Below, in pieces: positions 5,677 to 21,892 of a stretch of DNA of 23,267 nt. The stretch spans positions 1-23,267 of the forward strand of contig CAXGMD010000054.1 in NCBI GenBank assembly GCA_964010765.1. Reading direction: 5' to 3'. Source of the stretch: an uncultured bacterium. GTDB taxonomy: Bacteria > SAR324 > NAC60-12. Made by a program: the position numbers and the translations under genes. Below the pieces are notes generated by a model. That model was given only the letters and a program-made list of their open reading frames with translations, ran no database searches and had not been told where the DNA came from. Each line of letters opens with the position of its first letter. Position 1 is the first letter of the stretch.

Positions 5677-5733
5677 TTTTTGACTCTTTCTGAGGAAAAA
5701 TCAAAAATCGTGGCGTTTGCTCTGATTTGGGCG

Positions 5734-5762: not shown

Positions 5763-5859
5763 TCGGCCGTTTGCTCCCTTGTGGGCTTCTCCTCTAAATC
5801 CATCCCAAGGTCTTAATTCTTTGGGACGAAATTGCATCACGCCAACTGTGGAGTTTCTC

Positions 5860-6915: not shown

Positions 6916-6941
6916 AAGGCAGTCTAGCTACCGAAAACACA

Positions 6942-7844
6942 ATGGAACACGATCACGCACACCATGTTGGTGATTACAACCGAGCTTTTGCGCTGGGGGT
7001 AACGCTGAACTTGGGATTCGTGATCGTAGAGTTCTTTTTCGGGTTACTCTCAGATTCGCTCGCTTTACTGGCAGATGCTGGTCATAACCTGAGTGATGTT
7101 GCAGGATTACTGCTTGCCTGGGGCGCAAGTTATCTGGCAAAAGCTCCTGCCACAGCAAATCGAACTTACGGATGGCGCAAGGTGCCTGTGATGGCTTCCT
7201 TATTGAGTTCGTTGATGCTGCTGGTTGCCACAGGTGCCCTTGGCTGGGAAGCCTTTCAGCGACTCTTTGCACCACAATCGGTGACAAGCTTGACCGTCAT
7301 TGTGGTGGCTGGAGTTGGAGTGCTGGTCAATACAGTGACGGCTCTGCTGTTCGTGAGTGGTCAACACCATGACCTCAATTTACGGGCTGCTTTTCTGCAC
7401 ATGGCGGCGGATGCGGGGATCTCACTAGCGGTTGTGCTTGGTGGGCTGCTAATGCTTTGGCAGGAATTGCCCTGGGTTGATCCAGTCCTGTGTCTGCTGG
7501 TGGCCAGTTTCATCATTTTCAGCAGTTGGAGCCTACTCAAAGATTCCCTAGATTACGCATTGGATGCAGTACCTCGAAACATTGATGTACAAGGCATTCG
7601 CCAGTATCTGGCTAACTTGGAACAGGTAGACCGTCTGCATGATCTGCATGTTTGGCCGTTGAGTACCAGTGAGGTCGCACTGACCGTTCATTTGGTGGTA
7701 CATCAGCAATCACTGGACAACGGCTTGCTCCACCAGATTCAGCAGCATCTGCATGATCACTTTGAGATTGACCATGCAACCATCCAGCTTGAATCCTCGC
7801 TCGAAGAATCAAACTGCCTGTTGGCTCCGACAACCTGCCACTGA
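6942..7844 (+). CDS. czcD: Cation diffusion facilitator, Zn/Co/Cd exporter (CzcD/ZitB type)
   Basis: His-rich N-terminus MEHDHAHH, SLALLADAGHNLSD (TM2 HxxxD), NLRAAFLHMAAD (TM5 HxxxD), six hydrophobic segments, C-terminal LHDLHVW and HATIQ. Confidence 0.92.
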   Translation: MEHDHAHHVGDYNRAFALGVTLNLGFVIVEFFFGLLSDSLALLADAGHNLSDVAGLLLAWGASYLAKAPATANRTYGWRKVPVMASLLSSLMLLVATGALGWEAFQRLFAPQSVTSLTVIVVAGVGVLVNTVTALLFVSGQHHDLNLRAAFLHMAADAGISLAVVLGGLLMLWQELPWVDPVLCLLVASFIIFSSWSLLKDSLDYALDAVPRNIDVQGIRQYLANLEQVDRLHDLHVWPLSTSEVALTVHLVVHQQSLDNGLLHQIQQHLHDHFEIDHATIQLESSLEESNCLLAPTTCH

Positions 7845-7888
7845 TCAAAGAATCCATTTATCACTACAACAAATTCTTGGAGGATTAC

Positions 7889-9067
7889 ATGTCGATTGAA
7901 GCGCATGAAACCAATTCGAACTTCCGACGCATTCCCTATGGAATGGTGGGTGGTGGAGAAGGCGCCTTTATTGGAGCAGTACATCGCATTGCGGCTCGCA
8001 TTGATGACCGTTTTGAGCTGGTTGCAGGGGCTTTGAGTTCAGAAGCCGAGCGTTCGAAGCGCTCCGGTCAAGCCATTGGAATTACCTCGGATCGTTGTTA
8101 CGGAAGCTACCACGAAATGGCTCAGCAGGAAGCGGCTCGTCCTGATGGAATTGAGGCAGTCGTGATCGTTACCCCAAATCATCTGCATGTCCCGATTGCC
8201 AAAGCCTTTCTGGAAGCTGGGATCCACGTGATTTGTGACAAACCGTTGGCTGCTCATCTTGCGGACACCGAGGGACTATCTGAACTGGTTAAGGAGAAAG
8301 GTCGTCTTTTTGCCGTAACTTACAACTACAGCGGTTATCCGTTGATTCGACATGCTCGTGAAATCATCGCTAGTGGAGAGCTTGGAAAGATTCGGGTGGT
8401 TCAAGCGGAATATCCGCAGGATTGGCTGAGCGAAAAGTTGGAAGACACCGGGCAAAAGCAAGCTTCCTGGCGAACAGATCCGAATCAGGCCGGAGGAGGT
8501 GGATGTCTTGGAGATATTGGAACCCATGCCTTCCATTTAGCCTGTTTCGTCTCGGGACTTGCGCCAGTGAGTGTGTTGGCAGACCTGAATTCCTTTGTTG
8601 ATGGAAGGCAGCTCGATGATAACGTCCACGTGCTGCTACGCTTTGAAGGGGGCGCCAAAGGTATGCTTTGGGCTAGTCAAGTGGCCCCTGGAAATGAAAA
8701 TGGACTACGTCTGCGGATTTATGGAGAAAAAGCCGGCCTGAGTTGGTCTCAGGAAAACCCTAATTATTTAACGTTCTCCCCTCTTGGGGAAACTTCTCGC
8801 CTGCTTGGACGAGGCGGTCCTGGCCTGACAGGTGCGGCTGAAAGGGTCACCAGAATTCCACCAGGGCATCCTGAGGGCTACCTCGAAGGTTTTGCTACCA
8901 TCTATCGTGAAGTGGCTGATGCAATTGAAGCCAAGCGTAACGGAAAAGATCAACCAGATGAGGTGATTTTCCCCGATCTGGAAGAAGGTCTACAAGGGAT
9001 GCGCTTTGTTGATGCCGTGTTGCGTTCCCACAAAAATGGCGGAGTGTGGACTTCACTAAACAGCTGA
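7889..9067 (+). CDS. Gfo/Idh/MocA-family NAD(P)-dependent sugar oxidoreductase
   Basis: GMVGGGEGAFIGAVH, IVTPNHLH, HVICDKPLA, GGCLGDIGTHA. The ATG at 7889 follows a GGAGG SD and is preferred over the TTG at 7877. Confidence 0.92.
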   Translation: MSIEAHETNSNFRRIPYGMVGGGEGAFIGAVHRIAARIDDRFELVAGALSSEAERSKRSGQAIGITSDRCYGSYHEMAQQEAARPDGIEAVVIVTPNHLHVPIAKAFLEAGIHVICDKPLAAHLADTEGLSELVKEKGRLFAVTYNYSGYPLIRHAREIIASGELGKIRVVQAEYPQDWLSEKLEDTGQKQASWRTDPNQAGGGGCLGDIGTHAFHLACFVSGLAPVSVLADLNSFVDGRQLDDNVHVLLRFEGGAKGMLWASQVAPGNENGLRLRIYGEKAGLSWSQENPNYLTFSPLGETSRLLGRGGPGLTGAAERVTRIPPGHPEGYLEGFATIYREVADAIEAKRNGKDQPDEVIFPDLEEGLQGMRFVDAVLRSHKNGGVWTSLNS

Positions 9068-9148
9068 CATTTTCCCTTTCCAACCTCCATTCTATCTGAT
9101 TGTGCAAGTGCGAAATTTGTGTTCGGCGTATTTTTTTCTTTCTTTTGT

Positions 9149-9167
9149 TTAGTTTTACGTTTACTAA
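9149..9167. promoter_or_regulatory. Candidate operator palindrome upstream of the ABC operon
   Basis: TTAGT-TTTACGTTT-ACTAA inverted repeat in a T-rich stretch ~115 bp before the binding-protein start. Confidence 0.3.
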
Positions 9168-9282
9168 TTTAGCGCCTTGCGCAACAGACCGGAGTCGATT
9201 CCGGAGCCTGGAACAAGCGACAACTGTTCACCCGGAATCATTTCAGATCGGGTGATGGGATCTCCTTAACAAGAGAGGAATC

Positions 9283-10623
9283 ATGAAAAAGGGATGGATC
9301 AAGTCAATGCTGCAGACCGCAGCCGGTGCTGCACTAGCGCTGACGGTCATGGCGGCGCCAAGCCAGAAGGCTCAAGCCCAAAGCCTCACTCTATGCTGGG
9401 CAGCGTGGGACCCTGCAAACGCTTTGGTTGAGATGTCCAAGGACTTCACAGCCCAGAGTGGAATCGAAATGAACTTCGAGTTCGTGCCCTGGCCCAATTA
9501 TGCTGACCGAATGCTAAACGAACTGAACTCCGGCGGTAAACTTTGTGACCTGCTGATTGGAGACAGTCAGTGGATCGGTGGTTCTGCTGAGAATGGACAC
9601 TACGTTAAGCTAAACAGCTTCTTCGATAAGGAAGGCATCTCAATGGATGACTTCCTGCCAGCAACTGTTTACGCCTACTCTACCTGGCCAAAAGGAAGCC
9701 CCAACTACTGGGCTCTGCCGGCGATGGGTGATGCCAATGGCTGGGTCTACCGAAAGGACTGGTTCTCGCGGCCGGCGCTACGTTCAGAATTCAAGTCCAA
9801 GTACGGACGTGATCTGGAGCCGCCAAAGACCTGGACAGAGATGAAGGACATTGCCGAGTTCTTCCAGGGGCGAGATATTGACGGGAAGCGTGTCTATGGT
9901 GCTGCGATCTTCACCGAGCGTGGATCTGAGGGAATCACAATGGGTGCGACTGGTGCTCTCTACTCCTGGGGTTTCAAGTACCAAAATCCTAACAAGCCCT
10001 ATGACATGGAAGGCTTTGTTAACTCACCGGATGCTGTGGCAGCGCTGGAATTCTACAAGGAACTCTACAAGTGCTGTACTCCTCCAGGCTACACCGATAG
10101 CTACATGTCAGAAGGACTGGATGCGTTCAAGTCCGGACAGGTTGCTATGATGATGAACTGGTTCGCTTTCTTCCCAGGTCTCCACAAGGACCCTGTAGTG
10201 GGTGGTGACAAGATCGGATTCTTCGTGAATCCAGGTCAGAAAGTAGAAGCTTCTACATTGGGTGGACAGGGAATCTCCGTGGTTTCCTACTCCGAGAAGA
10301 AGGATCAAGCCTTGGAGTACATCAAGTGGTTCGCTTCCCCTGAAGTTCAGAAGAAGTGGTGGTCATTGGGTGGATATTCTTGCCACAAGTCTGTTCTTTT
10401 GGATCCAGGCTTTGCTAACACCCAACCGTTTGCTGCAGACTTCCTGAAGGCGATGGATGGAGTTCAGGATTTCTGGCAGGAGCCTGCTTACGCAGAACTG
10501 CTGCTAGCGATGCAGAAGCGCGTGCATGACTTTGTGGTTGCTGATCAAGGAACCGCTCAAGAAGCACTCGACAAGTTGATTGAAGACTGGACAGAGACCT
10601 TCGAAGACGAAGGCAAGCTCTAA
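9283..10623 (+). CDS. CUT1 carbohydrate ABC transporter substrate-binding protein
   Basis: Sec signal peptide (MKKGWIK...AQA/Q), 446 aa, SBP family 1 features (YALPAM-like YWALPAM, YRKDWF, PPKTWTE, FKSGQVAMMMNW, TLGGQGISV). Strong SD AGAGAGGA. Confidence 0.93.
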   Translation: MKKGWIKSMLQTAAGAALALTVMAAPSQKAQAQSLTLCWAAWDPANALVEMSKDFTAQSGIEMNFEFVPWPNYADRMLNELNSGGKLCDLLIGDSQWIGGSAENGHYVKLNSFFDKEGISMDDFLPATVYAYSTWPKGSPNYWALPAMGDANGWVYRKDWFSRPALRSEFKSKYGRDLEPPKTWTEMKDIAEFFQGRDIDGKRVYGAAIFTERGSEGITMGATGALYSWGFKYQNPNKPYDMEGFVNSPDAVAALEFYKELYKCCTPPGYTDSYMSEGLDAFKSGQVAMMMNWFAFFPGLHKDPVVGGDKIGFFVNPGQKVEASTLGGQGISVVSYSEKKDQALEYIKWFASPEVQKKWWSLGGYSCHKSVLLDPGFANTQPFAADFLKAMDGVQDFWQEPAYAELLLAMQKRVHDFVVADQGTAQEALDKLIEDWTETFEDEGKL

Positions 10624-10630
10624 GATGAAT

Positions 10631-10670
10631 TCACAGGAATTCACTGTTACTAGCAGTTGAATTCCTGTGA
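10631..10670 (+). terminator. Intercistronic stem-loop (partial terminator or mRNA stabiliser) after the binding-protein gene
   Basis: Perfect 13-bp arms TCACAGGAATTCA (10631-10643) / TGAATTCCTGTGA (10658-10670) with further inner CTG/CAG pairing. Only a weak U-tract follows. Confidence 0.65.
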
Positions 10671-10694
10671 TCAGTTTCAATTAAACGGAGCCCG

Positions 10695-11657
10695 ATGCCT
10701 CGTCCTTCCATACTTCAAAAAATTGCTTCCTCTGCAGCTGTTGCGACACCTGCGCCCGTTGCCAGGCAAGTCAGAGGGCTGTCAGATCGAGCCATTGCCT
10801 GGCTCTTTGTGACTCCAACAATCCTACTGTTGTTGGCGATCAACATCTTCCCGTTGATTTGGACCATCCAACTATCCTTTACCAACTACAAAGCGAACCG
10901 TGCTGCCCGCGGTGAAAAGTTCATTGGCCTCAGAAACTACGAGCGTGTGCTGGGTGATGCAGATATCTGGATCACCTTGCAGACGACCGCACACTTTCTC
11001 ATATGGACGATGCTGCTGCAGGTACTGCTAGGCTTTGGCCTAGCTTGGCTGCTGAACAAGCAATTCAAAGGACACTCTTTCTGGACCACGCTGATCTTGC
11101 TGCCAATGATGCTTTCACCGGCAGTAGTGGGAAATTTCTGGCGCTTTCTCTATCAACCCCAGATCGGTCTTTTCAATTACATCATCGCCTTCTTCACAGG
11201 CGCTGATCCTTCTTCTTTTGAGATGTTGGGGGATGTAAACTTAGCACCCTGGTCCATCGTGATAGTCGACACATGGATGTGGACACCCTACATCATGCTG
11301 ATCTGCCTAGCAGGCTTGCGTTCAATCCCAGACTACATCTATGAAGCGGCAGAAGTAGATCGGGCATCAAAGTGGCGACAGTTTTGGTCAATTACTATAC
11401 CAATGATCCTGCCTTTCTTGATGCTTGCGGTGCTTTTCCGAGCTATCGAAAACTTCAAAATGTTCGATTTAGTTGTTCAACTTACTAACGGAGGCCCTGG
11501 CTCAGTGACTGAACTAGCTTCGATAAATCTAAAGCGAGAGGCTTTTGAGAAGTGGCGGACTGGATACTCTTCAGCCTTTGCCATCATTCTTTTTGTGACA
11601 GTCTTTGGCGTGGCGAACATCTACGTCAAAGCTCTCAATGCGGTGAAGCAACGATGA
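10695..11657 (+). CDS. Carbohydrate ABC transporter permease (MalF/UgpA-like)
   Basis: FVTPTILLL, FIGLRNY, LILLPMMLSP, DTWMWTPY, EAA loop IPDYIYEAAEVDRASKW, LTNGGPG. Confidence 0.95.
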   Translation: MPRPSILQKIASSAAVATPAPVARQVRGLSDRAIAWLFVTPTILLLLAINIFPLIWTIQLSFTNYKANRAARGEKFIGLRNYERVLGDADIWITLQTTAHFLIWTMLLQVLLGFGLAWLLNKQFKGHSFWTTLILLPMMLSPAVVGNFWRFLYQPQIGLFNYIIAFFTGADPSSFEMLGDVNLAPWSIVIVDTWMWTPYIMLICLAGLRSIPDYIYEAAEVDRASKWRQFWSITIPMILPFLMLAVLFRAIENFKMFDLVVQLTNGGPGSVTELASINLKREAFEKWRTGYSSAFAIILFVTVFGVANIYVKALNAVKQR

Positions 11658-12592
11658 GTTCCGCACCTCCACACGAAAAGCCCTGGGGCAAGCGATTAGC
11701 TGCTGGACTAGTTATTCTGTACGCATTGGTCAGCATCATTCCGCTGATTTGGATATTCCTAACGGGCTTCAAGTCACCCCAGGATTCGATCAGCTATCCT
11801 CCCAAGATGGTGTTCTCCCCAACCATGGAAGGCTATGTAAACGTCTTCACTACTCGAACTCGGCAAACTCCAGAGTACATGGAAACATTGCCGCCTCCGG
11901 AAACCTGGTACGATGAGTTGGTGCGCTCACGAAGCATGGTGATCGCAGGGCCTTCCAAGTTTGGGCAACGCTTCTTGAATTCCATCATCATCGGCTTCGG
12001 TTCTACCTTTCTTTCGGTCTTCCTGGGAACTCTGGCGGCTTATGCCTTCTCACGCTTTAAGATTCCGCTCAAAGACGATCTGATGTTTTTCATCCTCTCC
12101 ACCCGGATGATGCCACCAATCGCTGTGGCGATTCCCATCTTTTTGATGTATCGCGAGTTGGGCTTGGCAGATACGCATCTAGGAATGATCCTCCTCTACA
12201 CGGCTGTCAACATCTCCTTGGCGGTCTGGCTTCTGAAGGGCTTCATTGATGAGATTCCGCGGGAATACGAGGAAGCTGCGATGATTGATGGCTACTCTCG
12301 TTTCCAGTCTTTCCGTAAAGTGGTCTTACCCCAGGCAACTACAGGCATAGCAGCAACCGCAATATTCTGTTTGATCTTCAGTTGGAACGAATATGCCTTT
12401 GCCCTCCTACTAACCTCAGGCACCGCTCAGACAGCACCACCTTTCATTCCAACCATCATTGGGGAAGGTGGACTAGACTGGCCTGCGGTAGCAGCTGGCG
12501 CAACACTCTTCCTGGTACCCATCGTTTTCTTCACGATCATGCTCCGCAAGCATCTGCTACGTGGAATCACTTTCGGCGCCGTCCGCAAATAA
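11654..12592 (+). CDS. Carbohydrate ABC transporter permease (MalG/UgpE-like)
   Basis: Start MSSAPP at 11654 by ATGA overlap with the upstream stop. FLNSII, LAAYAFSR, RMMPPIAVAIP, EAA loop IPREYEEAAMIDG, FSWNEY. Confidence 0.95.
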   Translation: MSSAPPHEKPWGKRLAAGLVILYALVSIIPLIWIFLTGFKSPQDSISYPPKMVFSPTMEGYVNVFTTRTRQTPEYMETLPPPETWYDELVRSRSMVIAGPSKFGQRFLNSIIIGFGSTFLSVFLGTLAAYAFSRFKIPLKDDLMFFILSTRMMPPIAVAIPIFLMYRELGLADTHLGMILLYTAVNISLAVWLLKGFIDEIPREYEEAAMIDGYSRFQSFRKVVLPQATTGIAATAIFCLIFSWNEYAFALLLTSGTAQTAPPFIPTIIGEGGLDWPAVAAGATLFLVPIVFFTIMLRKHLLRGITFGAVRK

Positions 12593-12603
12593 AGAGGAGC
12601 TGG

Positions 12604-12798
12604 ATGTCAGAGAACACAACATTGAGCCTTCGGCGCTACTTTCGAAGAAATTTCTGGGAGTGGATTGCTACAGTGATCATCCTGTTTGGGGTGGTGATGT
12701 TGATGCAGCCCTTTTTGCTCGTGCTTTACACCTACTCCTTCGTGGTGATCCTCACAGGCACCGTTTTGTTCATCATCGTGAGCCACTTCCCGGAATAA
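12604..12798 (+). CDS. Small two-TM membrane protein, 64 aa; probable accessory ABC subunit
   Basis: AGAGGAG SD at 12593-12599. It fills the gap between permease 2 (11 nt) and ATPase 1 (3 nt). Basic N-terminus (RRYFRR) then two hydrophobic segments WIATVIILFGVVMLMQPF and LYTYSFVVILTGTVLFIIV. This is the C-terminal part of track ORF 12382..12798. Confidence 0.8.
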   Translation: MSENTTLSLRRYFRRNFWEWIATVIILFGVVMLMQPFLLVLYTYSFVVILTGTVLFIIVSHFPE

Positions 12799-12801
12799 CA
12801 A

Positions 12802-13896
12802 ATGGCCGAGATTCAAGTCAGTCGCCTGAAAAAATCCTTTGGGGAGTTTGTTGCGGTCCAAGACTCCAGCTTCACGATTCAAAACGGCGAATTCTTCGTG
12901 ATGTTGGGGCCCTCTGGGTGTGGAAAGACAACAACGTTACGGATGATTGCTGGATTGGAGTTGCCAACTTCTGGTGAGATTCGGCTGGATCAGGAGGAAG
13001 TTACTTTCCTACCAGCGTCTCAACGAGACATTGCGTTTGTCTTCCAGTTGTTTGCGCTCTATCCCCACATGAATGTGCGGAAAAATCTGGCTTTCCCATT
13101 GAAGTGCATCGGGATCCCTTCTTCAGAAATCAAGCAGCGAGTTGAAGAAGCGGCTCGTCTACTGAGAATTGATCATCTGCTGAATCGTTCTGTCTCCGGG
13201 TTATCTGGTGGTGACCGTCAACGCGTAGCCCTCGGAAGAGCGATCATTCGTCGCCCGAAAGCCTTCCTGATGGATGAACCTCTTGGTGCTCTTGATGCTG
13301 AATTTCGTAATTTGATGTGCCAGGAACTGAAGGGATTGCATGACCGAATTGAGGCAACGACGGTTTACGTCACGCATGACCAACTGGAGGCGATGGCGAT
13401 GTCTGACCGGATTGCGGTGATGAATCACGGTGTGATTGAGCAGTTGGGGACTCCAAGCGAGATCTACAATAAGCCAGCAACCATGTATGTCGCTGATTTT
13501 ATCGGATCTCCACCGATGAACTTGCTCACCTTGCCCAATTCGCTGGAGCCTGGACAAACGGAGATCACTCTGCCAGGCGAGGGTTGTGGAACACTTCGTT
13601 GTCCTGCGTCAACACAGGGTGTTCAAGCAGACAATCTTGTCTTGGGTGTTCGCCCGGAACACTTACTTCCAGAGCAGAACGGTCCCCTACCAGGAGAAAT
13701 CAGTGTCGTCGAATACATGGGAACCACCCAGATCTTGACCATCCAGACTCCTTACGGGCAAGCACTTTCTCGCGTTCGTAGCACTCATTCATTTGGGGAA
13801 GGACAATCAGTGCGATTGAATTTTGCTGCTCAGCGAGCCTCTCTGTTTGACAAGAGTGATGGCAAAGCATTGCCCACGGAGGTGACTCATGGCTGA
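12802..13896 (+). CDS. Carbohydrate ABC transporter ATP-binding protein 1 (MalK family)
   Basis: Walker A GPSGCGKTT, Q-loop VFQ, signature LSGGDRQ, Walker B FLMDE, YVTHDQ, FIGSPPMN, C-terminal GVRPEH TOBE region. Confidence 0.96.
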   Translation: MAEIQVSRLKKSFGEFVAVQDSSFTIQNGEFFVMLGPSGCGKTTTLRMIAGLELPTSGEIRLDQEEVTFLPASQRDIAFVFQLFALYPHMNVRKNLAFPLKCIGIPSSEIKQRVEEAARLLRIDHLLNRSVSGLSGGDRQRVALGRAIIRRPKAFLMDEPLGALDAEFRNLMCQELKGLHDRIEATTVYVTHDQLEAMAMSDRIAVMNHGVIEQLGTPSEIYNKPATMYVADFIGSPPMNLLTLPNSLEPGQTEITLPGEGCGTLRCPASTQGVQADNLVLGVRPEHLLPEQNGPLPGEISVVEYMGTTQILTIQTPYGQALSRVRSTHSFGEGQSVRLNFAAQRASLFDKSDGKALPTEVTHG

Positions 13897-14914
13897 GATC
13901 GCTCTCCAGGGAATACAGAAGCGCTTCGGGGATACGCTTGCTATCAACAACCTTGAGTTGACCATTGGAGATGGAGAACTGGTCGTTTTGTTGGGCCCTT
14001 CGGGAGCTGGCAAGACAACCACTCTCCGCTTGATTGCTGGATTGGAGGAGGCAGATTCTGGAAGTATTCGGATCAATGGCCTGGACATGACAAAGTCGCA
14101 ACCCGCTGAGCGAGATGTTGCGTTTGTTTTCCAGCAATACTCGCTGTATCCACACCTAACGGTTCGGGACAACCTGAGCTTCCCGCTTCGCTCGCCAGTA
14201 TCCGGTCTTTCAGAAGACGCTGTTGCCAGTCGGGTTGAGGAAATTGCGAAGATGGTGCGGATCAAACACAAGCTTGAAAATAAGGCCACGGCCTTGTCCG
14301 GTGGGGAGATGCAGCGTGTCGCGATTGGCCGGGCACTGGTACGAAAGCCAACCATCTATCTAATGGATGAACCGCTCTCCTCCCTGGATGCGAAGCTGCG
14401 AGCTGAACTGCGAGTGGAGTTGAAGCACATTCAGCAGAATCTTGGGGCAACGATCCTTTATGTGACCCACGACCAGGTGGAAGCAATGACTCTGGCTGAT
14501 CGCATTGGTGTGCTCCGAGAGGGTGAACTGGTACAGCTGGGAACCCCCAAGGAAATTTTTGAACAGCCAAACAATACCTATGTGGCTGAGCGACTTGGGC
14601 AACCCTCGATCAATCTTGTGCCATTGAGTAATGAATGGCCCGTACAGGCTCCTGCCAACACCACACAGCTTGGATTGCGGACAGACCATGTTCAGTTGCA
14701 TTCTGCAGATAAGCAGACCCAAGCCACGGTTCCAGCCCAAGTGCAACGTGTTGAATATCTTGGCGACCAGACCTACCTGCATCTGCTCTGTGCAGGACAG
14801 GATCTCACCTTGCTGGCGGATCCAGCAACCTTGCTGAAGGAAGGTGACGGGGTAGCCCTTGAACTGGTGCAACCTCTTTTCTTCGACCAATCCGGAAATC
14901 GTTTGTCTGCTTGA
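13889..14914 (+). CDS. Carbohydrate ABC transporter ATP-binding protein 2 (MalK family)
   Basis: GPSGAGKTT, VFQQYSLYPH, LSGGEMQ, YLMDEPLS, YVTHDQ. Overlaps ATPase 1 by 8 nt, with a GGAGG SD. Confidence 0.96.
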   Translation: MAEIALQGIQKRFGDTLAINNLELTIGDGELVVLLGPSGAGKTTTLRLIAGLEEADSGSIRINGLDMTKSQPAERDVAFVFQQYSLYPHLTVRDNLSFPLRSPVSGLSEDAVASRVEEIAKMVRIKHKLENKATALSGGEMQRVAIGRALVRKPTIYLMDEPLSSLDAKLRAELRVELKHIQQNLGATILYVTHDQVEAMTLADRIGVLREGELVQLGTPKEIFEQPNNTYVAERLGQPSINLVPLSNEWPVQAPANTTQLGLRTDHVQLHSADKQTQATVPAQVQRVEYLGDQTYLHLLCAGQDLTLLADPATLLKEGDGVALELVQPLFFDQSGNRLSA

Positions 14915-14944
14915 GGGCAAGGCAACTTGATGGGGAAGCTACAG

Positions 14945-15553
14945 ATGACTCCAGACTTACTTAGATCGTTACTTCAAGGAACTGCAGAAGCAGTGATTGC
15001 CCAAGCTGAACACCTCACGGCTTTGGATCAAGCTATTGGTGATGGTGATCACGGCATCAACATGAAGAGAGGCCTGGAGAACGTGCTCGCTGATTTGGAA
15101 AATATCACAGCCAAACCACCAGCCGAGGCTCTTAAAGCGGTAGGCATGACCATGGTGATGAAAGTCGGTGGAGCCTCTGGTCCACTCTATGGCACCCTGG
15201 CGGTGACGCTGGGTAAGGAATGGCCAACAGACGATGAGCTAGACTCGGCGAAATTGGGCCAGATGCTCGCGGCATCCATCGAAGCTTTGAAGAAACGAGG
15301 AAAAGCAGATCTTGGAGCCAAGACCATGTTGGATGTGCTGGCTCCAGTCCAGCAAGCCTTGGAAGCAAATAAATCAATGACGGAGATCTCTGCGATTGCC
15401 CAGCAAGCCGCAGAAGCCACAATTCCAATGAAAGCAACTCGCGGACGGGCTTCCTTTCTGGGTGATCGTTCCATCGGACACATGGACCCTGGGGCCTATT
15501 CCTCTGCATTGATAATTCAAACTATCTGTCAACTTCTGGAAGAGAAATCATGA
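14945..15553 (+). CDS. dhaL: PEP-dependent dihydroxyacetone kinase, ADP-binding subunit
   Basis: LDQAIGDGDHGINM, GGASGPLYG, KTMLDV, ATRGRASFLGDRSIGHMDPGA. Start uncertain: 14930 or 14945 (the latter follows GGGGAAG). Confidence 0.93.
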   Translation: MTPDLLRSLLQGTAEAVIAQAEHLTALDQAIGDGDHGINMKRGLENVLADLENITAKPPAEALKAVGMTMVMKVGGASGPLYGTLAVTLGKEWPTDDELDSAKLGQMLAASIEALKKRGKADLGAKTMLDVLAPVQQALEANKSMTEISAIAQQAAEATIPMKATRGRASFLGDRSIGHMDPGAYSSALIIQTICQLLEEKS

Positions 15554-15930
15554 GTAACGTGGGCATTGTGATCGTTTCACATTCTCAGCAGGTCGCTGCG
15601 GGTACGGCTGAAATGGTGCTGCAGATGGTGGGAGATGAAGTTCCTCTTGCCTGGTGTGGTGGCAACCCTGATGGTGGTTTGGGGACAAGTGTAGAAGCGA
15701 TCATGGAAGCCATCTCTAAAGCCTGGTCAGATTCTGGAGTAGCCGTAATGGTTGATCTCGGTGGAGCTGAAACAAATAGTGAGATGGCGATTGAAATGCT
15801 ACCTGCCGAACGACAAAAGAAAGTTGTGATCTGCAATGCCCCGATTGTCGAAGGGAGTGTCATCGCAGCGACGGAAGCATCTGGTGGTGCAAGCCTGGAA
15901 GAAGTCAAAAGCTCAGCAGAAGAAATGTGA
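15550..15930 (+). CDS. dhaM: Dihydroxyacetone kinase phosphotransfer subunit, stand-alone EIIA(Man)-like domain
   Basis: VGIVIVSHS (phospho-His), CGGNPDGGLGTS, VMVDLGGAETN, NAPIVEG. 126 aa, single domain. ATGA overlap with dhaL. Confidence 0.93.
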   Translation: MSNVGIVIVSHSQQVAAGTAEMVLQMVGDEVPLAWCGGNPDGGLGTSVEAIMEAISKAWSDSGVAVMVDLGGAETNSEMAIEMLPAERQKKVVICNAPIVEGSVIAATEASGGASLEEVKSSAEEM

Positions 15931-15936
15931 GGAGGC

Positions 15937-16254
15937 ATGACTGAAGAAAATACCTGGACTTCTGAGGGTGCGGTAGAAATCACTCATGATGTGGGTCTAC
16001 ATGCGAGGCCCTCTGTCAAGTTGACCAAGCTCGCCAAGCGCTTCTCAGCACGGATTGAAATCGCAGCTGACTCTGAGGGTCCTTGGATCGATGCCAAAAG
16101 TATTGTCAAGGTGATGGGAGCCAAAATGCCGCAGGGAACCATTCTGCAATTGAGAGCCACAGGAACAGACGCTCAGCCTGCCGTGGAGGCTTTGATTGAT
16201 TTGGTCAATCAGGATTTTGAGGAATCACAGGATGCCCAGTCAGCCTCAGCTTAA
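15937..16254 (+). CDS. ptsH: HPr-family phosphocarrier protein
   Basis: GLHARPS (His15 equivalent), DAKSIVKVM (Ser46 equivalent), ATGTDA. GGAGG SD. Confidence 0.93.
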   Translation: MTEENTWTSEGAVEITHDVGLHARPSVKLTKLAKRFSARIEIAADSEGPWIDAKSIVKVMGAKMPQGTILQLRATGTDAQPAVEALIDLVNQDFEESQDAQSASA

Positions 16255-17833
16255 AGGAATCAGTGCAGCTCCTGGTCTTGCTCAGGGTGCGGCATTCTGG
16301 GCGGAGGCGCCTGCCGTAGTAGATTTTGCAGACTCCTTGAAACCCACGATTGATCTAGCGGAAGCCCTGACGTTGGCCAGTAGCCAGTTGGTGGAGTTGA
16401 TGGAGCGAGTCGAGGGAGACGACGCAGAAATCCTCGAGTTTCAGCTTGCGATGCTCGAAGATGAAGCTCTCACTGATCCAGTACGTCAGGCTTTTGCAGC
16501 GGGTACGACATTGATTGAAGCCTGGCAACAAACCCTGGACGAACATGTCACAGACTACGAGCAAAGTGAAGACGAGTACTTTCAGGCACGGGCCAGTGAC
16601 CTACGTGATATTCGTGACCGAGTCCTCAGGATTCTACGTGGAGAAACAGAAGCTGCGATCCCTGAGGGAGCGATCCTGCTCGCAACCGATTTAACTCCCA
16701 GTCGCTTTCTCAGCCTAGATTGGAACAAGGGTGGGGGAGTGGTCTTGCGGGAAGGTAGCCCTTCAAGTCATGTAGCCATGCTAGCACGTTCCCGTGGGGT
16801 GCCGATGTTGGTAGGCATTGGAGACCTCCAAACTGGAGCTTTCCCAGATCAAACCAGATTGTTGCTGGATGCGGATGAAGGTGTGCTGCACGTAGATCCT
16901 TCCACAGAGGAAACCCAAGCCTTTGAGCATAAGCTGCAAATAGCTGTAGAGGAAGCAGAACGACTAGCCCCTTTATTGAATCAACCCGCGCAAACTTTGA
17001 ATGGAACATCGGTTCAGGTACTGATCAATGTGGCGCTGCCAGAAGAATTGGCAAAACTCAATTCAGCGCATTGTGATGGAATCGGCCTGATGCGTTCAGA
17101 ATTTCTGTTTCACCATGGGCTACCCAGCGAAGAATCACAATACCGATCCTATCGAAAACTCTTGGAATGGGCTGGAGAAAAGCCAGTAACGATTCGTACT
17201 CTTGATGCAGGCGGTGACAAGCCTCTGCCCGGGCTGGAGCAACCAACTGAAAGTAACCCGTTTCTTGGTCTACGAGGACTCCGACTTTCCCTACGACAAC
17301 CAGAGGTCTTCCGAACTCAACTCCGTGCACTGTGCAGGGCAGCTGTTCATGGAAATCTGAAGGTGATGGTGCCGATGGTTACTGTCCCTGATGAATTACA
17401 TTCGACCCGGGAATTATTGGAAGATGTTTGTGCCGAACTTACCACAGAAGGTACTGAATTCCATAAGCCAGTTCTCGGAATGATGGTAGAAGTCCCCGCT
17501 GCTGCTCTGGCTCCTGAGTTGTTTGCTGATGCTGCGTTCTTTTCAATTGGTAGTAATGATCTGGTTCAATATCTGACAGCTAGTGCACGCGACCTTCATC
17601 ATGTTGCAGATCTGGCAGATCCTGGCCATCCAGCAGTCTTGCGAGTCATTAGAGAATTAGCGCAGCATTGCGCTCGTTCCGGCCAAGAGTTGAGCCTTTG
17701 CGGAGATATGGGTAGCGATCCGAATTTCATCGCACAGTTACTGGAAGTGGGCTTGCGTAATTTGTCAGTGGCACCAGCCCGCTTGGGGAAGACCAAGTGG
17801 ACCATTCGTGAAACCAATCTGGAGGGGGTGTGA
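16232..17833 (+). CDS. ptsI: Phosphoenolpyruvate-protein phosphotransferase (PTS enzyme I)
   Basis: KGISAAPGLAQG, RASDLRDI, DLTPS, EGSPSSHVAMLARS (phospho-His), GIGLMRSEF, IRTLDAGGDK, ESNPFLGLRGLR, MMVEVP, FSIGSNDLVQY, LCGDMG (catalytic Cys). ATG at 16232 after GAGGA; overlaps the HPr gene by 23 nt; no GAF domain. Confidence 0.94.
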   Translation: MPSQPQLKGISAAPGLAQGAAFWAEAPAVVDFADSLKPTIDLAEALTLASSQLVELMERVEGDDAEILEFQLAMLEDEALTDPVRQAFAAGTTLIEAWQQTLDEHVTDYEQSEDEYFQARASDLRDIRDRVLRILRGETEAAIPEGAILLATDLTPSRFLSLDWNKGGGVVLREGSPSSHVAMLARSRGVPMLVGIGDLQTGAFPDQTRLLLDADEGVLHVDPSTEETQAFEHKLQIAVEEAERLAPLLNQPAQTLNGTSVQVLINVALPEELAKLNSAHCDGIGLMRSEFLFHHGLPSEESQYRSYRKLLEWAGEKPVTIRTLDAGGDKPLPGLEQPTESNPFLGLRGLRLSLRQPEVFRTQLRALCRAAVHGNLKVMVPMVTVPDELHSTRELLEDVCAELTTEGTEFHKPVLGMMVEVPAAALAPELFADAAFFSIGSNDLVQYLTASARDLHHVADLADPGHPAVLRVIRELAQHCARSGQELSLCGDMGSDPNFIAQLLEVGLRNLSVAPARLGKTKWTIRETNLEGV

Positions 17834-18270
17834 CAACGGACTTAAAAGCCCAGTTAGTTGCCCAGTACAAGCAGATTCTCTCAGAAATGCTAAGCAATCG
17901 CCCTTCCGGAACCCGACAGCGACTGGCGACAATGCTGCGCAAGAATCGTAGTTTTATCTCCCAGATTTCCAATCCCAGCTACGCCACACCCATCCCGGCT
18001 CGTCATCTGGATATCATCTTCGAAGTTTGCCATTTCTCTGAAAAAGCTCGTCGAGACTTCTTATACTACTACGACCAGGCGCACCCTGGTAGACGTCACA
18101 GTCCAAATTACCAGCACCAGGAGGCGCATCGAGAGGGGCTGCGATTTCGTCGGATGATGTTATACTTACCAGATCTGGGAAGCGATGAAGCCAACAAAGA
18201 ACTCGATGACCTGATCCTGGAAACCGCCCGTCGGTTAAGTCACCTGTTACAGATTTCTGAGCGCTCCTGA
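17830..18270 (+). CDS. Uncharacterised 146-aa protein with a Cro/XRE-like helix-turn-helix pattern; putative regulator
   Basis: GTG start overlaps the ptsI stop (GTGA) with SD GGAGGGG. Segment TRQRLATMLRKNRSFISQISN fits a helix-turn-helix spacing. It fills the gap before dhaK. Confidence 0.75.
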   Translation: MTTDLKAQLVAQYKQILSEMLSNRPSGTRQRLATMLRKNRSFISQISNPSYATPIPARHLDIIFEVCHFSEKARRDFLYYYDQAHPGRRHSPNYQHQEAHREGLRFRRMMLYLPDLGSDEANKELDDLILETARRLSHLLQISERS

Positions 18271-18318
18271 AAGCGTGCTGATCTGTTCCCCATCCTCATT
18301 TCTTCCGTGGGAGAGTTC

Positions 18319-19308
18319 ATGAAAAAATTAATTAACGCTACCGATCAAGTACTTACCGAAAGCCTAAGTGGTTTTGTCTCCGCACATGCCGATTTGCTGG
18401 AGCTCGGTTCCGAGGGAAAATTTGTACGCCGCAAGCAACTCAAGCCTGGAAAGCCAGTCTTGATCTCTGGTGGAGGTTCCGGTCATGAACCTCTGCATGG
18501 TGGTTTTGTGGGGCATGGAATGCTGGATGCCGCCTGTCCTGGACAGGTCTTCACTTCACCGACTCCAGACCAAATGCTGGAAGCAATGCAAGCTACCGAA
18601 AGTGGTGGTGGGGTGCTACTGATCGTCAAGAACTACGAAGGTGACGTGATGAACTTCGAGATGGCTGCCGAGATGGCAGAGTGTGAGGTTACTACGGTAT
18701 TGACTGATGATGACGTAGCTGTGGAAACCTCAACCTATTCAACAGGCCGACGGGGTGTCGCAGGCACCATGATCGTTGAGAAGATCGTTGGCGCTGCAGC
18801 AGAAACAGGGAGAGACTTGGCAGCTTTGAAGGACTTAGGAGATCGTGTCAATCAGCAGACCCGATCAATGGGGGTCGCCCTGACAAGCTGTACGGTTCCA
18901 GCTGCAGGTAGTCCGACCTTCCAGATTGGTGAAAATGAAATGGAGATGGGAGTCGGGATTCATGGTGAGCCAGGAAGAAAAAGAGTTGCTCTTGGTGAAG
19001 CCAAGGACATCGCTGCAGAAATGATTGGAGCCATCCGCAAGGATTTTGGAGACCAAGCCAAGGGCAACGCTATCATGCTGGTCAATGGATTTGGTGGAAC
19101 CCCATTGATGGAACTTTACCTGATGCACCACTGTGTTGAACAGGAGTTGGCGGGAAGTGGAATAACGATTGCCCGCTCACTGGTTGGTAATTATGTGACT
19201 TCTTTGGAAATGGCCGGATGCTCGGTCACACTGAGTCTGGTTGATGATGAATTGCTGGGACTCTGGGATGCACCTGTTCACACAGCAGGACTACGCTGGG
19301 GCATGTAA
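18319..19308 (+). CDS. dhaK: PEP-dependent dihydroxyacetone kinase, substrate-binding subunit
   Basis: MKKLIN, ISGGGSGHEP, GQVFTSPTP, IVKNYEGDVMNF, DDVA, GRRGVAG, GVGIHGEPG (substrate-binding His), NGFGGTP, YVTSLEMAG. ATG at 18319 after GGGAGAG. Confidence 0.96.
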   Translation: MKKLINATDQVLTESLSGFVSAHADLLELGSEGKFVRRKQLKPGKPVLISGGGSGHEPLHGGFVGHGMLDAACPGQVFTSPTPDQMLEAMQATESGGGVLLIVKNYEGDVMNFEMAAEMAECEVTTVLTDDDVAVETSTYSTGRRGVAGTMIVEKIVGAAAETGRDLAALKDLGDRVNQQTRSMGVALTSCTVPAAGSPTFQIGENEMEMGVGIHGEPGRKRVALGEAKDIAAEMIGAIRKDFGDQAKGNAIMLVNGFGGTPLMELYLMHHCVEQELAGSGITIARSLVGNYVTSLEMAGCSVTLSLVDDELLGLWDAPVHTAGLRWGM

Positions 19309-19414
19309 GCAGACCTGATAAGTTTGTGCTCTGGGCAGAGATCGTGTACATCTAAGCGAAAGCGTTAATTATCAGCGTTGATAAATTCTGCAACACTGTT
19401 TCTGATACCCAAGA

Positions 19415-20074
19415 TTGACTTCTACAAGCAAAGCCCAGAGCCTCGGCGAAGAGATCGCCAATAGCATTACCCACGGAATCGGAACAGCCCTAAGCGTCGC
19501 GGCTCTCACGCTGCTAGTCACGTTGGCTTCCCAGCAAGGAGACGCCTGGCAGATTGTCAGTGTTAGTGTTTATGGCAGTTCGCTGATTCTGCTGTACCTT
19601 GCTTCTACTCTCTATCACGGACTACAAAATCAGCGGGCTAAGCGCATCTTCAAGATCCTCGACCACTCGGCGATCTTTCTGCTGATTGCTGGAACCTACA
19701 CACCCTTCCTGCTTGGTAACCTACGCGGCACTTGGGGCTGGAGTCTCTTTGGAGTGATCTGGGGTATGGCTCTGCTGGGGATTGTCTTCAAGATTTTTTT
19801 TGTGGGCAAACTTCCTAAGGCCTCGACGGCCACGTATCTAGTGATGGGCTGGCTCTGCCTAATTGCACTTCCTCAAATGTGGGAGACGATCGAAACAGCT
19901 GGCCTGATCCTGCTCTTTGTGGGCGGGGTTTCTTATAGTGTGGGTGTGGTTTTTTATTCCTGGCGCCGACTCCCCTACCATCACGCCATCTGGCACCTCT
20001 TTGTCCTCGGAGGTAGCACGGCTCATTTCTTTGCTGTACTGCTGAATGTCCTGCCTACTGACGTTTCTGCCTGA
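19415..20074 (+). CDS. trhA: Hemolysin III / PAQR-family membrane protein (TrhA/YqfA-like)
   Basis: EEIANSITHGIG, STLYH, ILDHSAIFLLIAGTYTP, YLVMGW, HAIWHLFVLGG; seven hydrophobic segments. TTG start; an in-frame TGA at 19403-19405 limits any extension. Confidence 0.9.
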   Translation: MTSTSKAQSLGEEIANSITHGIGTALSVAALTLLVTLASQQGDAWQIVSVSVYGSSLILLYLASTLYHGLQNQRAKRIFKILDHSAIFLLIAGTYTPFLLGNLRGTWGWSLFGVIWGMALLGIVFKIFFVGKLPKASTATYLVMGWLCLIALPQMWETIETAGLILLFVGGVSYSVGVVFYSWRRLPYHHAIWHLFVLGGSTAHFFAVLLNVLPTDVSA

Positions 20075-20171
20075 TTTTCAGAATTTAGAATGCAATTGAG
20101 ACGGGTTGTTGCTTGTTGACAAAGGGACTTGATTTATTTGTGGCAGGTTTGCCTTTGGACTCAGTTCAGCT

Positions 20172-20217
20172 ACAACAATATTCATCTCAAAAGGCATTTT
20201 GAGATGAATATTGTTGT
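20172..20217. repeat. Perfect 21-bp inverted repeat with a 4-nt loop
   Basis: ACAACAATATTCATCTCAAAA (20172-20192) - GGCA - TTTTGAGATGAATATTGTTGT (20197-20217); the arms are exact reverse complements. Confidence 0.95.
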
Positions 20218-20249
20218 CTCTGGGAGGAAAATTAATCTTAGATGAGAAT

Positions 20250-20274
20250 AAAAAAAGAACCTATTGCAAATAGG
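20250..20274 (-). terminator. Candidate intrinsic terminator, minus strand
   Basis: Minus strand reads CCTATT-TGC-AATAGG then TTCTTTTTTT. The stem is short and weak. Confidence 0.4.
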
Positions 20275-20302
20275 AGAGTTGAATCGCTTGATAGGTTGCA
20301 GG

Positions 20303-20325
20303 GTAGCAAGTATTTGCTACTTTTT
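20303..20325 (+). terminator. Candidate intrinsic terminator, plus strand
   Basis: GTAGCAA-GTAT-TTGCTAC followed by TTTTT. Confidence 0.5.
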
Positions 20326-20521
20326 GTGGTATGGTGCCGCATGAAGGCTCGCTGAACCATATTTGCTCAGCAGAGCCTTACGAAAGGCGACTAACTCTTT
20401 GGTAGCAAAGTTATTGAACTCACAAGTCAGCTTTATCGATATTATACAGAAAATCACTCACCATAAGTGAGGTTGGGCAATCTTTCTGAATTATATTTGA
20501 GCGTAGACCGTTCAATTAGAA

Positions 20522-20896
20522 TCACGTCCCAACAGGTCCGCCGTTCTCTTTCCAATCAGAAAACCCGCCAACATTGCAGACATTCTTGAAACCCATCTCC
20601 ACAAGAGTGTGCCCTGTTAAAGCGGCCATACCACCAGCACCACATACCAAGACGATCTCGGCATCTTTTTGAAGCTTTTCCTCATGGTAGGGTGTACTTG
20701 AATCAGCAGCAAATTCAATAAATCCTCTTGGTATTTTCAGGGCACCTTGAATAGTACCTGTTTCTTGAATTTCAAGACCGTCTCGCACATCGATAAAAAC
20801 ACTATTTCCGTCGGCATGCTTTTGGATTCCATCAGCAACACTGATTTTTGGTACCACTGCGTTTGCAGCACTCAAAGCAGATTCAGCGGTTTTCAT
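20522..20896 (-). CDS. Single-domain rhodanese-like sulfurtransferase
   Basis: VFIDVRD, GTIQGALKIPRG, active-site loop LVCGAGGMA, LVEMGFKNVCNVGGFSDW. GGAG SD. Confidence 0.9.
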   Translation of the reverse strand: MKTAESALSAANAVVPKISVADGIQKHADGNSVFIDVRDGLEIQETGTIQGALKIPRGFIEFAADSSTPYHEEKLQKDAEIVLVCGAGGMAALTGHTLVEMGFKNVCNVGGFSDWKENGGPVGT

Positions 20897-21186
20897 AAAT
20901 ACTCCATTTTATGTGTTATAGATTGAGACTCTGTACAAAGTTTGTCTTCAGTTTGCTGAATGACTCTTTGCCAATCTCGTTAAAGACAACAAATTAGTTT
21001 TAGACATACCACAAGCCTTGGCAAGCAAATTAGTCAGGGTGTGAAGGCCGACTCAAGTGATTGCAACATAACTCGATCATCCTAGTAATTTTAAGTATGC
21101 AAGCGGAGAATCCACATTAATTATGATAGAGAATTTCGTTCATAATTCGCTGATTTTTTTTAAATGTCAGCAGTGACGCTTTGAGC

Positions 21187-21687: not shown

Positions 21688-21840
21688 GGATTCGCTCGTT
21701 GGTAAAGAAAAGGTTGGATAGGATGAGCAACTCATCGTTTGCTCACAAGAAAACGGATAACAATAATTAAATCTGCACTTGCAGAGGAATCAAGCTTGAG
21801 GTGTTTGTTAGGACAGAATTTTTAAAGTACTGGAAGAACA

Positions 21841-21867
21841 GCGCTCCCGTGGAATGATTGGGAGCGC
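21841..21867 (-). terminator. GC-rich stem-loop downstream of the aminotransferase gene
   Basis: GCGCTCCC (21841-21848) / GGGAGCGC (21860-21867), 25 nt past the stop, followed on the minus strand by TGTTCTT. Confidence 0.55.
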
Positions 21868-21892
21868 GTCTGTAGGCTAGAAGGAAACAAGT

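Follow-up and report, generated by a model that had tools for sequence, protein, structure and literature searches.

A twelve-gene operon in an uncultured SAR324 bacterium combines a CUT1-type ABC importer with a complete set of PEP-dependent dihydroxyacetone-kinase relay proteins

We analysed a stretch of 23,267 nucleotides from an uncultured bacterium of the SAR324 lineage (contig CAXGMD010000054.1, assembly GCA_964010765.1), in the following called the window. Between positions 9283 and 19308, twelve genes join an ATP-binding cassette (ABC) importer of the carbohydrate uptake transporter 1 (CUT1) type to a dihydroxyacetone (DHA) kinase and to soluble proteins of the phosphotransferase system (PTS). 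We are highly confident in this architecture and in the completeness of the phosphoryl relay. To explain it, we propose that all twelve genes together make up an 'import-then-trap' operon that is self-contained and horizontally mobile. A six-component importer (substrate-binding protein, two permeases, a 64-aa membrane protein and two ATPases) would take up a small free ketose at the expense of ATP. A relay that is separate from transport would then pass the phosphoryl group from phosphoenolpyruvate (PEP) to enzyme I (EI), HPr, DhaM, the ADP on DhaL and finally the substrate on DhaK. The cargo would be phosphorylated at once, as it is by DhaKLM of Escherichia coli and Lactococcus lactis. We regard this overall explanation as evenly poised between right and wrong.

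The preliminary description of this DNA had listed twelve consecutive genes on the + strand, and the list of open reading frames (ORFs) together with Pfam and NCBIfam scans confirmed all of them:

9283 to 10623, + strand: substrate-binding protein (SBP) of CUT1 type, 446 aa, periplasmic (Pfam SBP_bac_8/SBP_bac_1)
10695 to 11657, + strand: ABC permease 1, MalF/UgpA-like (BPD_transp_1; NCBIfam MalF/UgpA below cut-off)
11654 to 12592, + strand: ABC permease 2, MalG/UgpE-like (BPD_transp_1; NCBIfam matches)
12604 to 12798, + strand: 64-aa membrane protein with two hydrophobic helices (ORF; conserved position across loci)
12802 to 13896, + strand: ABC ATPase 1, UgpC/MalK-like with TOBE/OB domain (ABC_tran and TOBE)
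13889 to 14914, + strand: ABC ATPase 2, a second, distinct MalK-like ATPase (ABC_tran and TOBE)
14927 to 15553, + strand: DhaL, ADP-binding (Dak2) subunit (TIGR02365)
15550 to 15930, + strand: DhaM, single EIIA-Man domain, 126 aa (TIGR02364)
15937 to 16254, + strand: HPr-family phosphocarrier, 105 aa (PF00381, TIGR01003)
16232 to 17833, + strand: EI (PEP-protein phosphotransferase), 533 aa, no GAF domain (three EI domains, TIGR01417)
17830 to 18270, + strand: ORF146, probable XRE/lambda-cI-like helix-turn-helix (HTH) regulator (structure model, profile search, co-occurrence with a palindrome)
18307 to 19308, + strand: DhaK, substrate-binding (Dak1) subunit (TIGR02363)

Ten of the twelve proteins exceed the cut-offs of curated Pfam and NCBIfam models. 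The intergenic gaps range from -23 to +71 nt, and start and stop overlap in four gene pairs (permease 1/permease 2, ATPase 1/ATPase 2, DhaL/DhaM and EI/ORF146). For permease 2 we used the start at 11654, which overlaps the stop of permease 1, and not the start of the longest ORF at 11552. The EI gene most likely starts at the ATG at 16232, where it overlaps the end of the HPr gene. A scan of positions 5400 to 20600 was uninformative on the transcription unit, as it returned 6 promoter-like sites compared to 10.8 expected and 15 terminator-like sites compared to 15.5 expected.

The evidence for a complete relay comes from curated models and conserved motifs. DhaL reaches 232 bits against TIGR02365 (cut-off 138), and its Dak2 domain carries the motifs GDGDHG and GGASGP. 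DhaM, which consists of an EIIA-Man domain only, reaches 144 bits against TIGR02364 (cut-off 98); its N-terminus reads IVIVSHS, and the expected phospho-histidine lies inside the segment IVSHS at residues 8 to 12. We take the role of this histidine to be the one described for DhaM of L. lactis and E. coli. HPr scores 62.8 bits against TIGR01003 (cut-off 47.9) and contains a GLHARP motif, in which the equivalent of His15 lies. EI scores 387 bits against TIGR01417 (cut-off 342) and has all three EI domains, for HPr binding, for the phospho-histidine and for PEP binding. A full-length alignment to the structure 2HRO indicates that it retains the SH (phospho-histidine), RTLD, NDL and C(G)D/E motifs. 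DhaK scores 468 bits against TIGR02363 (cut-off 406), and its alignment to the E. coli DhaK structures 1UOE/1OI2 (E 1e-99) retains the motifs GSGHEP, NYxGD and GIHGEPG. For the residues that bind substrate or take part in catalysis in DhaKLM and EI, we presume the roles known from the literature on these proteins. The earlier claim of a complete EI-HPr-DhaM-DhaL-DhaK relay is thus borne out at the level of motifs, with the curated models above their cut-offs. Judged by sequence, the relay is predicted to phosphorylate DHA to dihydroxyacetone phosphate (DHAP) in a PEP-dependent manner. The proteins also match the earlier statement that no EIIB or EIIC is present: among the 25 window proteins scanned against Pfam, none has an EIIB, EIIC or EIID domain, and neither EIIB nor EIIC occurs among the conserved families of 82 related loci.

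Similar to DhaKLM of E. coli and L. lactis, the operon encodes split DhaK (Dak1) and DhaL (Dak2) subunits that score above the equivalog cut-offs, and its DhaM is a lone EIIA-Man domain, as L. lactis DhaM reportedly is. However, the operon encodes its own EI and HPr, whereas the DhaKLM systems of E. coli and L. lactis borrow those of the general PTS. Furthermore, its gene order dhaL-dhaM-ptsH-ptsI-orf146-dhaK and its connection to an ABC importer are unlike those two systems, and in place of DhaR (E. coli) or DhaQ/DhaS (L. lactis) it contains the 146-aa XRE-like protein. A parallel to a transport-free relay comes from haloarchaea. For Haloferax volcanii (HVO_1543-1546) and Haloquadratum walsbyi, the relevant passages of two reports describe a dhaKLM operon with its own HPr gene as a cytosolic, non-transporting PTS branch, and discuss DHA as an environmental carbon source for these organisms (PMC2841640; PMC3863723). 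As presented in those passages, the haloarchaeal DHA-PTS differs from the window operon in that it has no linked ABC importer, its EI lies outside the operon and it is archaeal.

Bradyrhizobium diazoefficiens USDA110 has a cluster, blr3566-blr3577, whose twelve genes match those of the window in kind and order. We draw this likeness from its annotation (PMC5017801) and not from sequence comparison, as the cluster lies outside the 80 loci of our neighbourhood survey. The genes are annotated there as an SBP, two permeases, a small hypothetical protein, two ATPases, a hypothetical protein with a DhaL domain, EIIA-Man, HPr, EI, a hypothetical protein and DhaK. According to the data given on this cluster, all twelve rise jointly by 4- to 24-fold in a blr7984 mutant and all twelve fall in bacteroids (PMC5017801). 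The twelve-gene set has been noticed already in this one transcriptome study, whose passages on the cluster offer neither a substrate nor an explanation. In the searchable literature, just one further paper mentions any of these locus tags. In the openly readable literature, which leaves subscription papers outside our scope, we found no other report of an ABC importer tied to a DHA kinase or of a transporter for DHA or erythrulose; the articles PMC3333776, PMC4941405 and PMC11375893 contain only mentions of DHAP or an unrelated gene list.

The preliminary description had made its reading depend on synteny between the SBP and dhaKLM, and our neighbourhood survey found this synteny. We scanned for the SBP with one genome per species, which gave 576 confirmed loci, and fetched the best 80 of these 576. 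The 16 window proteins of the region were searched against every locus, and families of neighbouring genes were clustered with known genes masked and ORFs weighted by their GC content at third codon positions (GC3). We considered 55 loci as informative, namely those in which all six genes of the ABC cassette are present and the sequence extends 2 kb or more past ATPase 2. In 55 out of 55, a Dak-family kinase directly follows the ABC cassette. The split PTS-type kinase is present in 36 of them, in the order DhaL-DhaM-HPr-EI-(ORF146)-DhaK; among these 36, ORF146 is found in 35 and a DhaK of at least 55% identity also in 35. A fused two-domain DAK occurs in 20 of the 55 loci, including two that contain both kinase types, and one locus has DhaL and DhaK only. 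This last locus (L038, Candidatus Desulfacyla euxinica) shows no DhaM, HPr, EI or ORF146 in the fetched stretch, and a gene for a thiamine pyrophosphate (TPP) enzyme lies downstream of its kinase genes. On a Rhizobium plasmid both kinase types stand behind the ABC cassette, and a Ruegeria plasmid has the ATP type. When the kinase type is mapped on a quick SBP tree, it changes at least twice by well-supported branches and five to six times by parsimony, with the ABC cassette staying constant. This suggests that the conserved unit is the ABC cassette plus a Dak-type phosphorylation, whatever the phosphoryl donor.

The survey also bears on the question whether EI and HPr are simply the general or regulatory PTS of the organism, located here by chance, with the Dak proteins acting mainly as sensors or regulators and not as a catabolic trap. 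Such a role is conceivable for Dak proteins, as E. coli DhaK and DhaL are said to double as co-regulators of DhaR. In addition, among the 12 long ORF146-family proteins that we scanned, six (P0200, P0190, P0233, P0186, P0262 and P0225) join the C-terminal part of EI to the ORF146 domain. However, EI, HPr and DhaM are found only in loci with the split kinase: they are present in the 36 PTS-type loci and are replaced wholesale in the 18 loci where a fused ATP-type DAK takes their place. Proteins that come and go with the split kinase behave as a dedicated relay and not as a general PTS. Furthermore, the three proteins and the ABC genes move together, both to unrelated contexts and to other phyla, the window encodes no EIIB or EIIC, and the kinase retains every catalytic motif. 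From the window, three short contigs of close relatives and the surveyed loci, we consider it very unlikely that this is a general PTS, and the EI/HPr pair would serve only this kinase.

The earlier notion of a portable module is supported, as the relay and the ABC cassette move as one block into unrelated genomic contexts. Three loci (L001, L034 and L054, with 98-99% SBP identity) are contigs of metagenome-assembled genomes assigned to 'Deltaproteobacteria' and labelled Myxococcota on the SBP tree, and their locus is arranged as in the window. Most other carriers are Alphaproteobacteria (Rhodospirillales, Kiloniellales/Pelagibius, Dongiaceae, Hyphomicrobiales and Rhodobacterales), joined by some Burkholderiales, a Sedimenticola, a Desulfacyla and Verrucomicrobia. 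In a quick, unrooted SBP tree, the window clusters with Pelagibius and Rhodospirillales entries (SH-aLRT 92). This distribution is consistent with a horizontal spread of the operon, without implying a direction. We detected no compositional sign of recent transfer in the window, where the GC content is 0.47-0.55 throughout, except for 0.41 at 20-21 kb.

The transporter has the composition of a CUT1 system (TC 3.A.1.1): its SBP belongs to family 1, its two permeases are of the MalF/G type, and it has a MalK-type ATPase that carries a TOBE domain. It resembles MalEFGK2 and UgpBAEC in its SBP_bac_1/8 protein, its two BPD_transp_1 permeases and its MalK/UgpC-like ATPase with TOBE domain; it differs from them in having two different ATPase genes and the extra 64-aa membrane subunit. 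The presence of two different ATPases is a constant feature across the loci. The translation of ATPase 1 shows both Walker motifs and the signature motif. ATPase 2 has them intact, as GPSGAGKTT (Walker A), LMDEP (Walker B) and LSGGEMQR (signature). The 64-aa protein matches no Pfam family even at E<=10 and no NCBIfam model. Homologues stand at the same position in 67 loci and share the pattern LMQPF...GT..F.IVS(H/K)FPE, and the protein is probably an accessory subunit of the transporter. We infer that transport is inward.

The SBP has thousands of relatives, the best of which are 77-91% identical. Across the loci, the transporter is better conserved than the relay. Compared to the window, the SBPs of Alpha-, Beta- and Gammaproteobacteria and Verrucomicrobia are 68-82% identical and the permeases 67-86% (the range observed for permease 1 across related loci), versus 46-54% for EI and 36-56% for ORF146. 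Such a high conservation is unusual for binding proteins. An AlphaFold2 (AF2) model of the SBP (predicted local distance difference test, pLDDT, 83) matches CUT1 SBPs in Foldseek with template modelling (TM) scores of 0.72-0.76. These matches are generic CUT1 binders of di- and oligosaccharides at about 20% identity, and they neither fix nor exclude a small ligand. A paralogous six-gene ABC cassette is present on pSymB of Sinorhizobium meliloti (L085), with an SBP of 44% identity, the same small hypothetical protein and two ATPases. There, the Dak kinase is replaced, and the neighbours are TetR, UPF0261 and PEP-hydrolase-family genes. This suggests a CUT1 sub-type that comprises several specificities.

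The 146-aa protein between EI and DhaK had been described as an orphan, which we revise: fold, profile and palindrome leads make it a probable HTH regulator of the module. ORF146 is found in 36 related loci, and an alignment of 27 sequences has a mean column identity of 53%, with invariant RPSG.R...A....SF motifs. Its AF2 model is all-helical (pLDDT 90). The top Foldseek matches are the N-terminal domain of lambda cI, C.Esp1396I, C.AhdI and ClgR (target TM scores 0.57-0.67). A profile search against the sequences in the PDB places the XRE-family protein 3F6W first (E 0.011), and the ESM Atlas yields HTH_3 clusters at 0.93-0.95. Each of these leads is weak, but all agree, and the fold is probably an XRE-like HTH.

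A possible target of this regulator lies in front of the operon. We searched 460 nt around the SBP start for the dyad GTTTAGT-N8-14-ACTAAAC with at most two mismatches. Of the 35 loci with ORF146, 32 have the dyad in front of the SBP gene, as does 1 of the 19 loci that lack ORF146; among 2590 control windows drawn from these loci, none contained it. The single locus with a dyad but no ORF146 is a PTS-type locus that lost the gene (L059, Taklimakanibacter albus); at 18807-18829 of this locus, EI ends 22 nt before DhaK with no ORF146 in between, and the palindrome is kept. Across all 23 kb of the window, a single site fits the dyad with at most two mismatches, and it is our candidate operator:

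9147 to 9169, no strand: candidate operator GTTTAGT-N9-ACTAATT, an imperfect palindrome 114 nt upstream of the SBP start

Together with the fold leads, the co-occurrence of the dyad with ORF146 suggests that ORF146 is probably the module's own regulator. It would regulate the operon and bind the palindrome GTTTAGT-N-ACTAAAC in front of the SBP gene. Several observations weigh against this assignment. No Pfam family matches ORF146 even at E<=10 and no NCBIfam model does, so that an HTH_3/HTH_31-type domain is not recovered; the Foldseek E-values are non-significant (best 0.28); the Fisher p-value for the co-occurrence of dyad and ORF146 (2e-10) ignores phylogenetic relatedness; and the window palindrome is imperfect, with two mismatches and a spacer of 9 compared to the usual 12-13. 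Taking both sides into account, we consider it likely that ORF146 is the operon's own regulator and acts at the candidate palindrome, where we infer that it binds DNA.

The loci with the ATP-type kinase have neither ORF146 nor the dyad. Instead, they contain a LacI gene and the 18-bp palindrome TTGAGGTGCGTACCTCAA. In the Rhodobacterales loci with a fused DAK (L006-L044, L082), one or two copies of this palindrome, 30 bp apart, precede the SBP gene by 90-180 nt. The LacI-family regulator whose gene stands between those for DAK and the TIM-barrel protein probably uses it as its operator.

The ORF146 family extends well beyond these loci, with 354 cluster representatives at E<=0.001 among 1.84 billion proteins. 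Besides the six long members with an EI part, three others (P0195, P0241 and P0149) have the ORF146 N-terminal domain fused to PAS-GAF, PAS-HisKA-HATPase or GntR-FCD. The EI-ORF146 fusions may be real or may be read-through artefacts of gene calling; in the window, the EI and ORF146 genes overlap by GTGA. Based on these domain arrangements, the ORF146 domain appears to behave as a portable DNA-binding head.

If the twelve genes form an import-then-trap operon, the cargo would be DHA or a relative that fits the DhaK pocket, for instance glyceraldehyde or a tetrulose such as erythrulose. Genes next to the operon are relevant here. The preliminary description had argued that no dehydrogenase lies inside the operon and that the imported solute is hence itself the kinase substrate. 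The premise is literally true, but it overlooked a conserved oxidoreductase of the Gfo/Idh/MocA family and a TIM-barrel protein that lie adjacent, separated from each other by a cation diffusion facilitator (CDF) gene:

5860 to 6915, + strand: TIM-barrel protein, orthologue of the 2-hydroxy-3-keto-glucal hydratase AtHYD of Agrobacterium tumefaciens (PDB 8RO4)
6942 to 7844, + strand: CDF cation-efflux gene (Pfam)
7877 to 9067, + strand: Gfo/Idh/MocA NAD(P) oxidoreductase (Pfam; PDB 3V5N, E 2e-155)

The TIM-barrel protein aligns to 8RO4 with E 7e-188 and about 78% identity over 350 residues. The Gfo oxidoreductase scores just 115 bits against the NCBIfam model for levoglucosan dehydrogenase (cut-off 650), and its gene ends 216 nt upstream of the SBP gene. 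Since this TIM-GFO pair is conserved beside the module, the argument from a missing dehydrogenase to the cargo is not supported in the form in which it was made.

Four observations count against the direct uptake of a small ketose. First, the TIM-GFO pair is present within 10 kb in 25 of 41 fully flanked loci. Second, in Rhodobacterales the order is ABC-DAK-LacI-TIM-GFO, apparently as one LacI-controlled transcription unit. Third, the nearest solved folds of the SBP are binders of di- and oligosaccharides and of glycosides, at about 20% identity, and none of them binds a C3 compound. Fourth, the best model for the fused DAKs of the ATP-type loci is the ATP-type glycerone kinase, and they reach 487-548 bits, below the cut-off of 575. 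Falling below this equivalog cut-off means that specificity for DHA is not assured.

An alternative is an importer that takes a keto-sugar, an anhydro-sugar or a glycoside. The AtHYD-like protein and the Gfo oxidoreductase would then perform 3-keto chemistry, Dak would phosphorylate the small ketose or aglycone that is released, and the operon would form a single branch of a wider pathway. In A. tumefaciens, AtHYD and the adjacent Gfo oxidoreductase convert the glycal that arises by elimination from a 3-keto-glycoside to 3-keto-glucose and further to glucose in vitro, as described in the sections on this pathway in PMC10628242. The pairing of TIM-barrel and Gfo proteins is thus common to the window and to the A. 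tumefaciens 3-keto-glycoside pathway (GlycDH, AtOGE, AtHYD and Gfo). The close identity to the solved AtHYD, the presence of the pair in three arrangements relative to the module (upstream and co-directional, divergent, or downstream), the restriction of LacI-type operators to the region upstream of the SBP gene in the Rhodobacterales order, and the SBP fold all speak for this explanation.

Yet the comparison with A. tumefaciens is incomplete. In the window, unlike in the 3-keto-glycoside locus, the cation-efflux gene separates TIM from Gfo, and the sections of PMC10628242 on that locus report no Dak kinase. Neither a glycoside 3-dehydrogenase nor a beta-eliminase (OGE) is encoded in the window or found among the conserved neighbour families. 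The remaining 16 of the 41 fully flanked loci lack the TIM-GFO pair, and nothing substitutes for it: their flanks are heterogeneous, with no shared enzyme or regulator. Furthermore, the pair occurs independently of Dak modules. A LacI-xylB-xylA-TIM-GFO unit is present in S. meliloti without any ABC-Dak module, and LacI-TIM-GFO adjoins other ABC systems on plasmids of Phaeobacter (P. inhibens) and A. tumefaciens that have no Dak kinase there. We thus interpret the TIM-GFO unit as a shared trunk of sugar-catabolic islands, whose linkage to the module is real but not obligatory. In addition, the ORF146 palindrome is confined to the SBP promoter and absent from the 2590 other windows, and we could not name a natural glycoside that yields a DhaK substrate. 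Taken together, we regard the uptake of a glycoside or keto-sugar as unlikely, although it deserves to be kept in mind.

The gene for the cation-efflux protein between TIM and GFO is specific to this lineage. In L034, a 68-aa remnant is left (5395-5598), and in L001 the gene is split into two frames (365-1125). It looks like an insertion that is decaying in some strains.

A further explanation starts from a polyol (glycerol, erythritol, threitol or xylitol) or a pentose as cargo, from which the Gfo oxidoreductase or an unlinked dehydrogenase would make the kinase's ketose inside the cell. Its models are the conversion of glycerol to DHA (dha regulon) and of tetritols to erythrulose (LerK/DerK pathways). 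The position of the Gfo/Idh/MocA gene directly upstream of the operon fits this idea, as do the sugar genes nearby. Among the 41 loci, 21 contain a LacI-family gene, 11 an FGGY kinase (xylB-like) and 7 a xylose isomerase (xylA), with LacI-xylB-xylA-TIM-GFO as a common arrangement near the module, so that xylB and xylA join the TIM-GFO operon beside it. The tetritol pathways of Mycobacterium smegmatis reportedly combine a dehydrogenase, a DAK-family kinase and a TIM-barrel isomerase of PF01261, which we count in favour of a polyol. The two ATPases and the small membrane protein also recall the rhizobial glycerol transporter GlpSTPQV, which is said to have two ATPases and a small DUF2160 protein and to be linked to glpK/glpD. 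We dropped the idea of a kinship with this transporter, because DUF2160 does not match the 64-aa protein even at E<=10. Moreover, neither glpK nor glpD is found among the conserved families of the loci, and the same is true for glycerol dehydrogenase, glycerol kinase and RpiB-type isomerases. The oxidoreductase is absent from the 16 loci mentioned above, and the TIM-barrel protein is an orthologue of a cyclic keto-sugar hydratase and not of a tetrulose-phosphate isomerase. A polyol or pentose importer therefore seems rather improbable.

The 16 loci without the pair are also informative for the uptake of a free ketose. Their heterogeneous flanks suggest that the module is self-sufficient, which supports but does not prove that the cargo is the kinase substrate. 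As these loci have no conserved extra enzyme, they favour the direct uptake of a small ketose. Weighing gene content and neighbourhoods, we give the import of a DHA-like small ketose as such close to an even chance.

Housekeeping genes border the region on both sides. Upstream (32-5676, - strand) these are pyrD, purK, purE, rarA and a gene for a malic enzyme with an ACT domain. After DhaK, a membrane protein of the TrhA/hemolysin-III family (19415-20074) is found in the window, L001 and L054 only, and it lies outside the conserved module. The downstream flank (20522-23266) encodes a rhodanese, a redoxin and a class-III aminotransferase. The housekeeping flanks suggest that the module is chromosomal and located on no obvious mobile element.

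The operon is a new variant assembled from known parts. In a typical PTS, one membrane protein both translocates its substrate and phosphorylates it. In this operon, the two tasks fall to different machineries, an ABC importer and a soluble EI-HPr-EIIA-DhaL-DhaK chain that is private to the operon. Since other lineages combine the same importer with an ATP-type DAK, the family offers a natural experiment on the choice between PEP and ATP as phosphoryl donor. The operon also points to an uncharacterised transporter specificity, and it provides a testable pair of regulator and operator for a protein family without a name. Culturable carriers include B. diazoefficiens USDA110, Dongia mobilis, Bauldia litoralis and Sinorhizobium fredii. 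In its most far-reaching form, our reading would combine the first dedicated high-affinity ABC importer for free DHA or another small 2-ketose, a private and transport-free PTS branch, and an unnamed family of XRE-like regulators; we put this forward tentatively and with more doubt than confidence. As part of that reading, the regulators may sense the phosphorylation state of the relay, given that certain family members are joined to the EI C-terminus or to PAS-GAF sensor domains. Should this reading be right, the occurrence of the operon in Alpha-, Beta-, Gamma- and 'Delta'-proteobacteria of soil and sea would give free DHA-like ketoses more weight as a carbon currency of the environment than is currently assumed.

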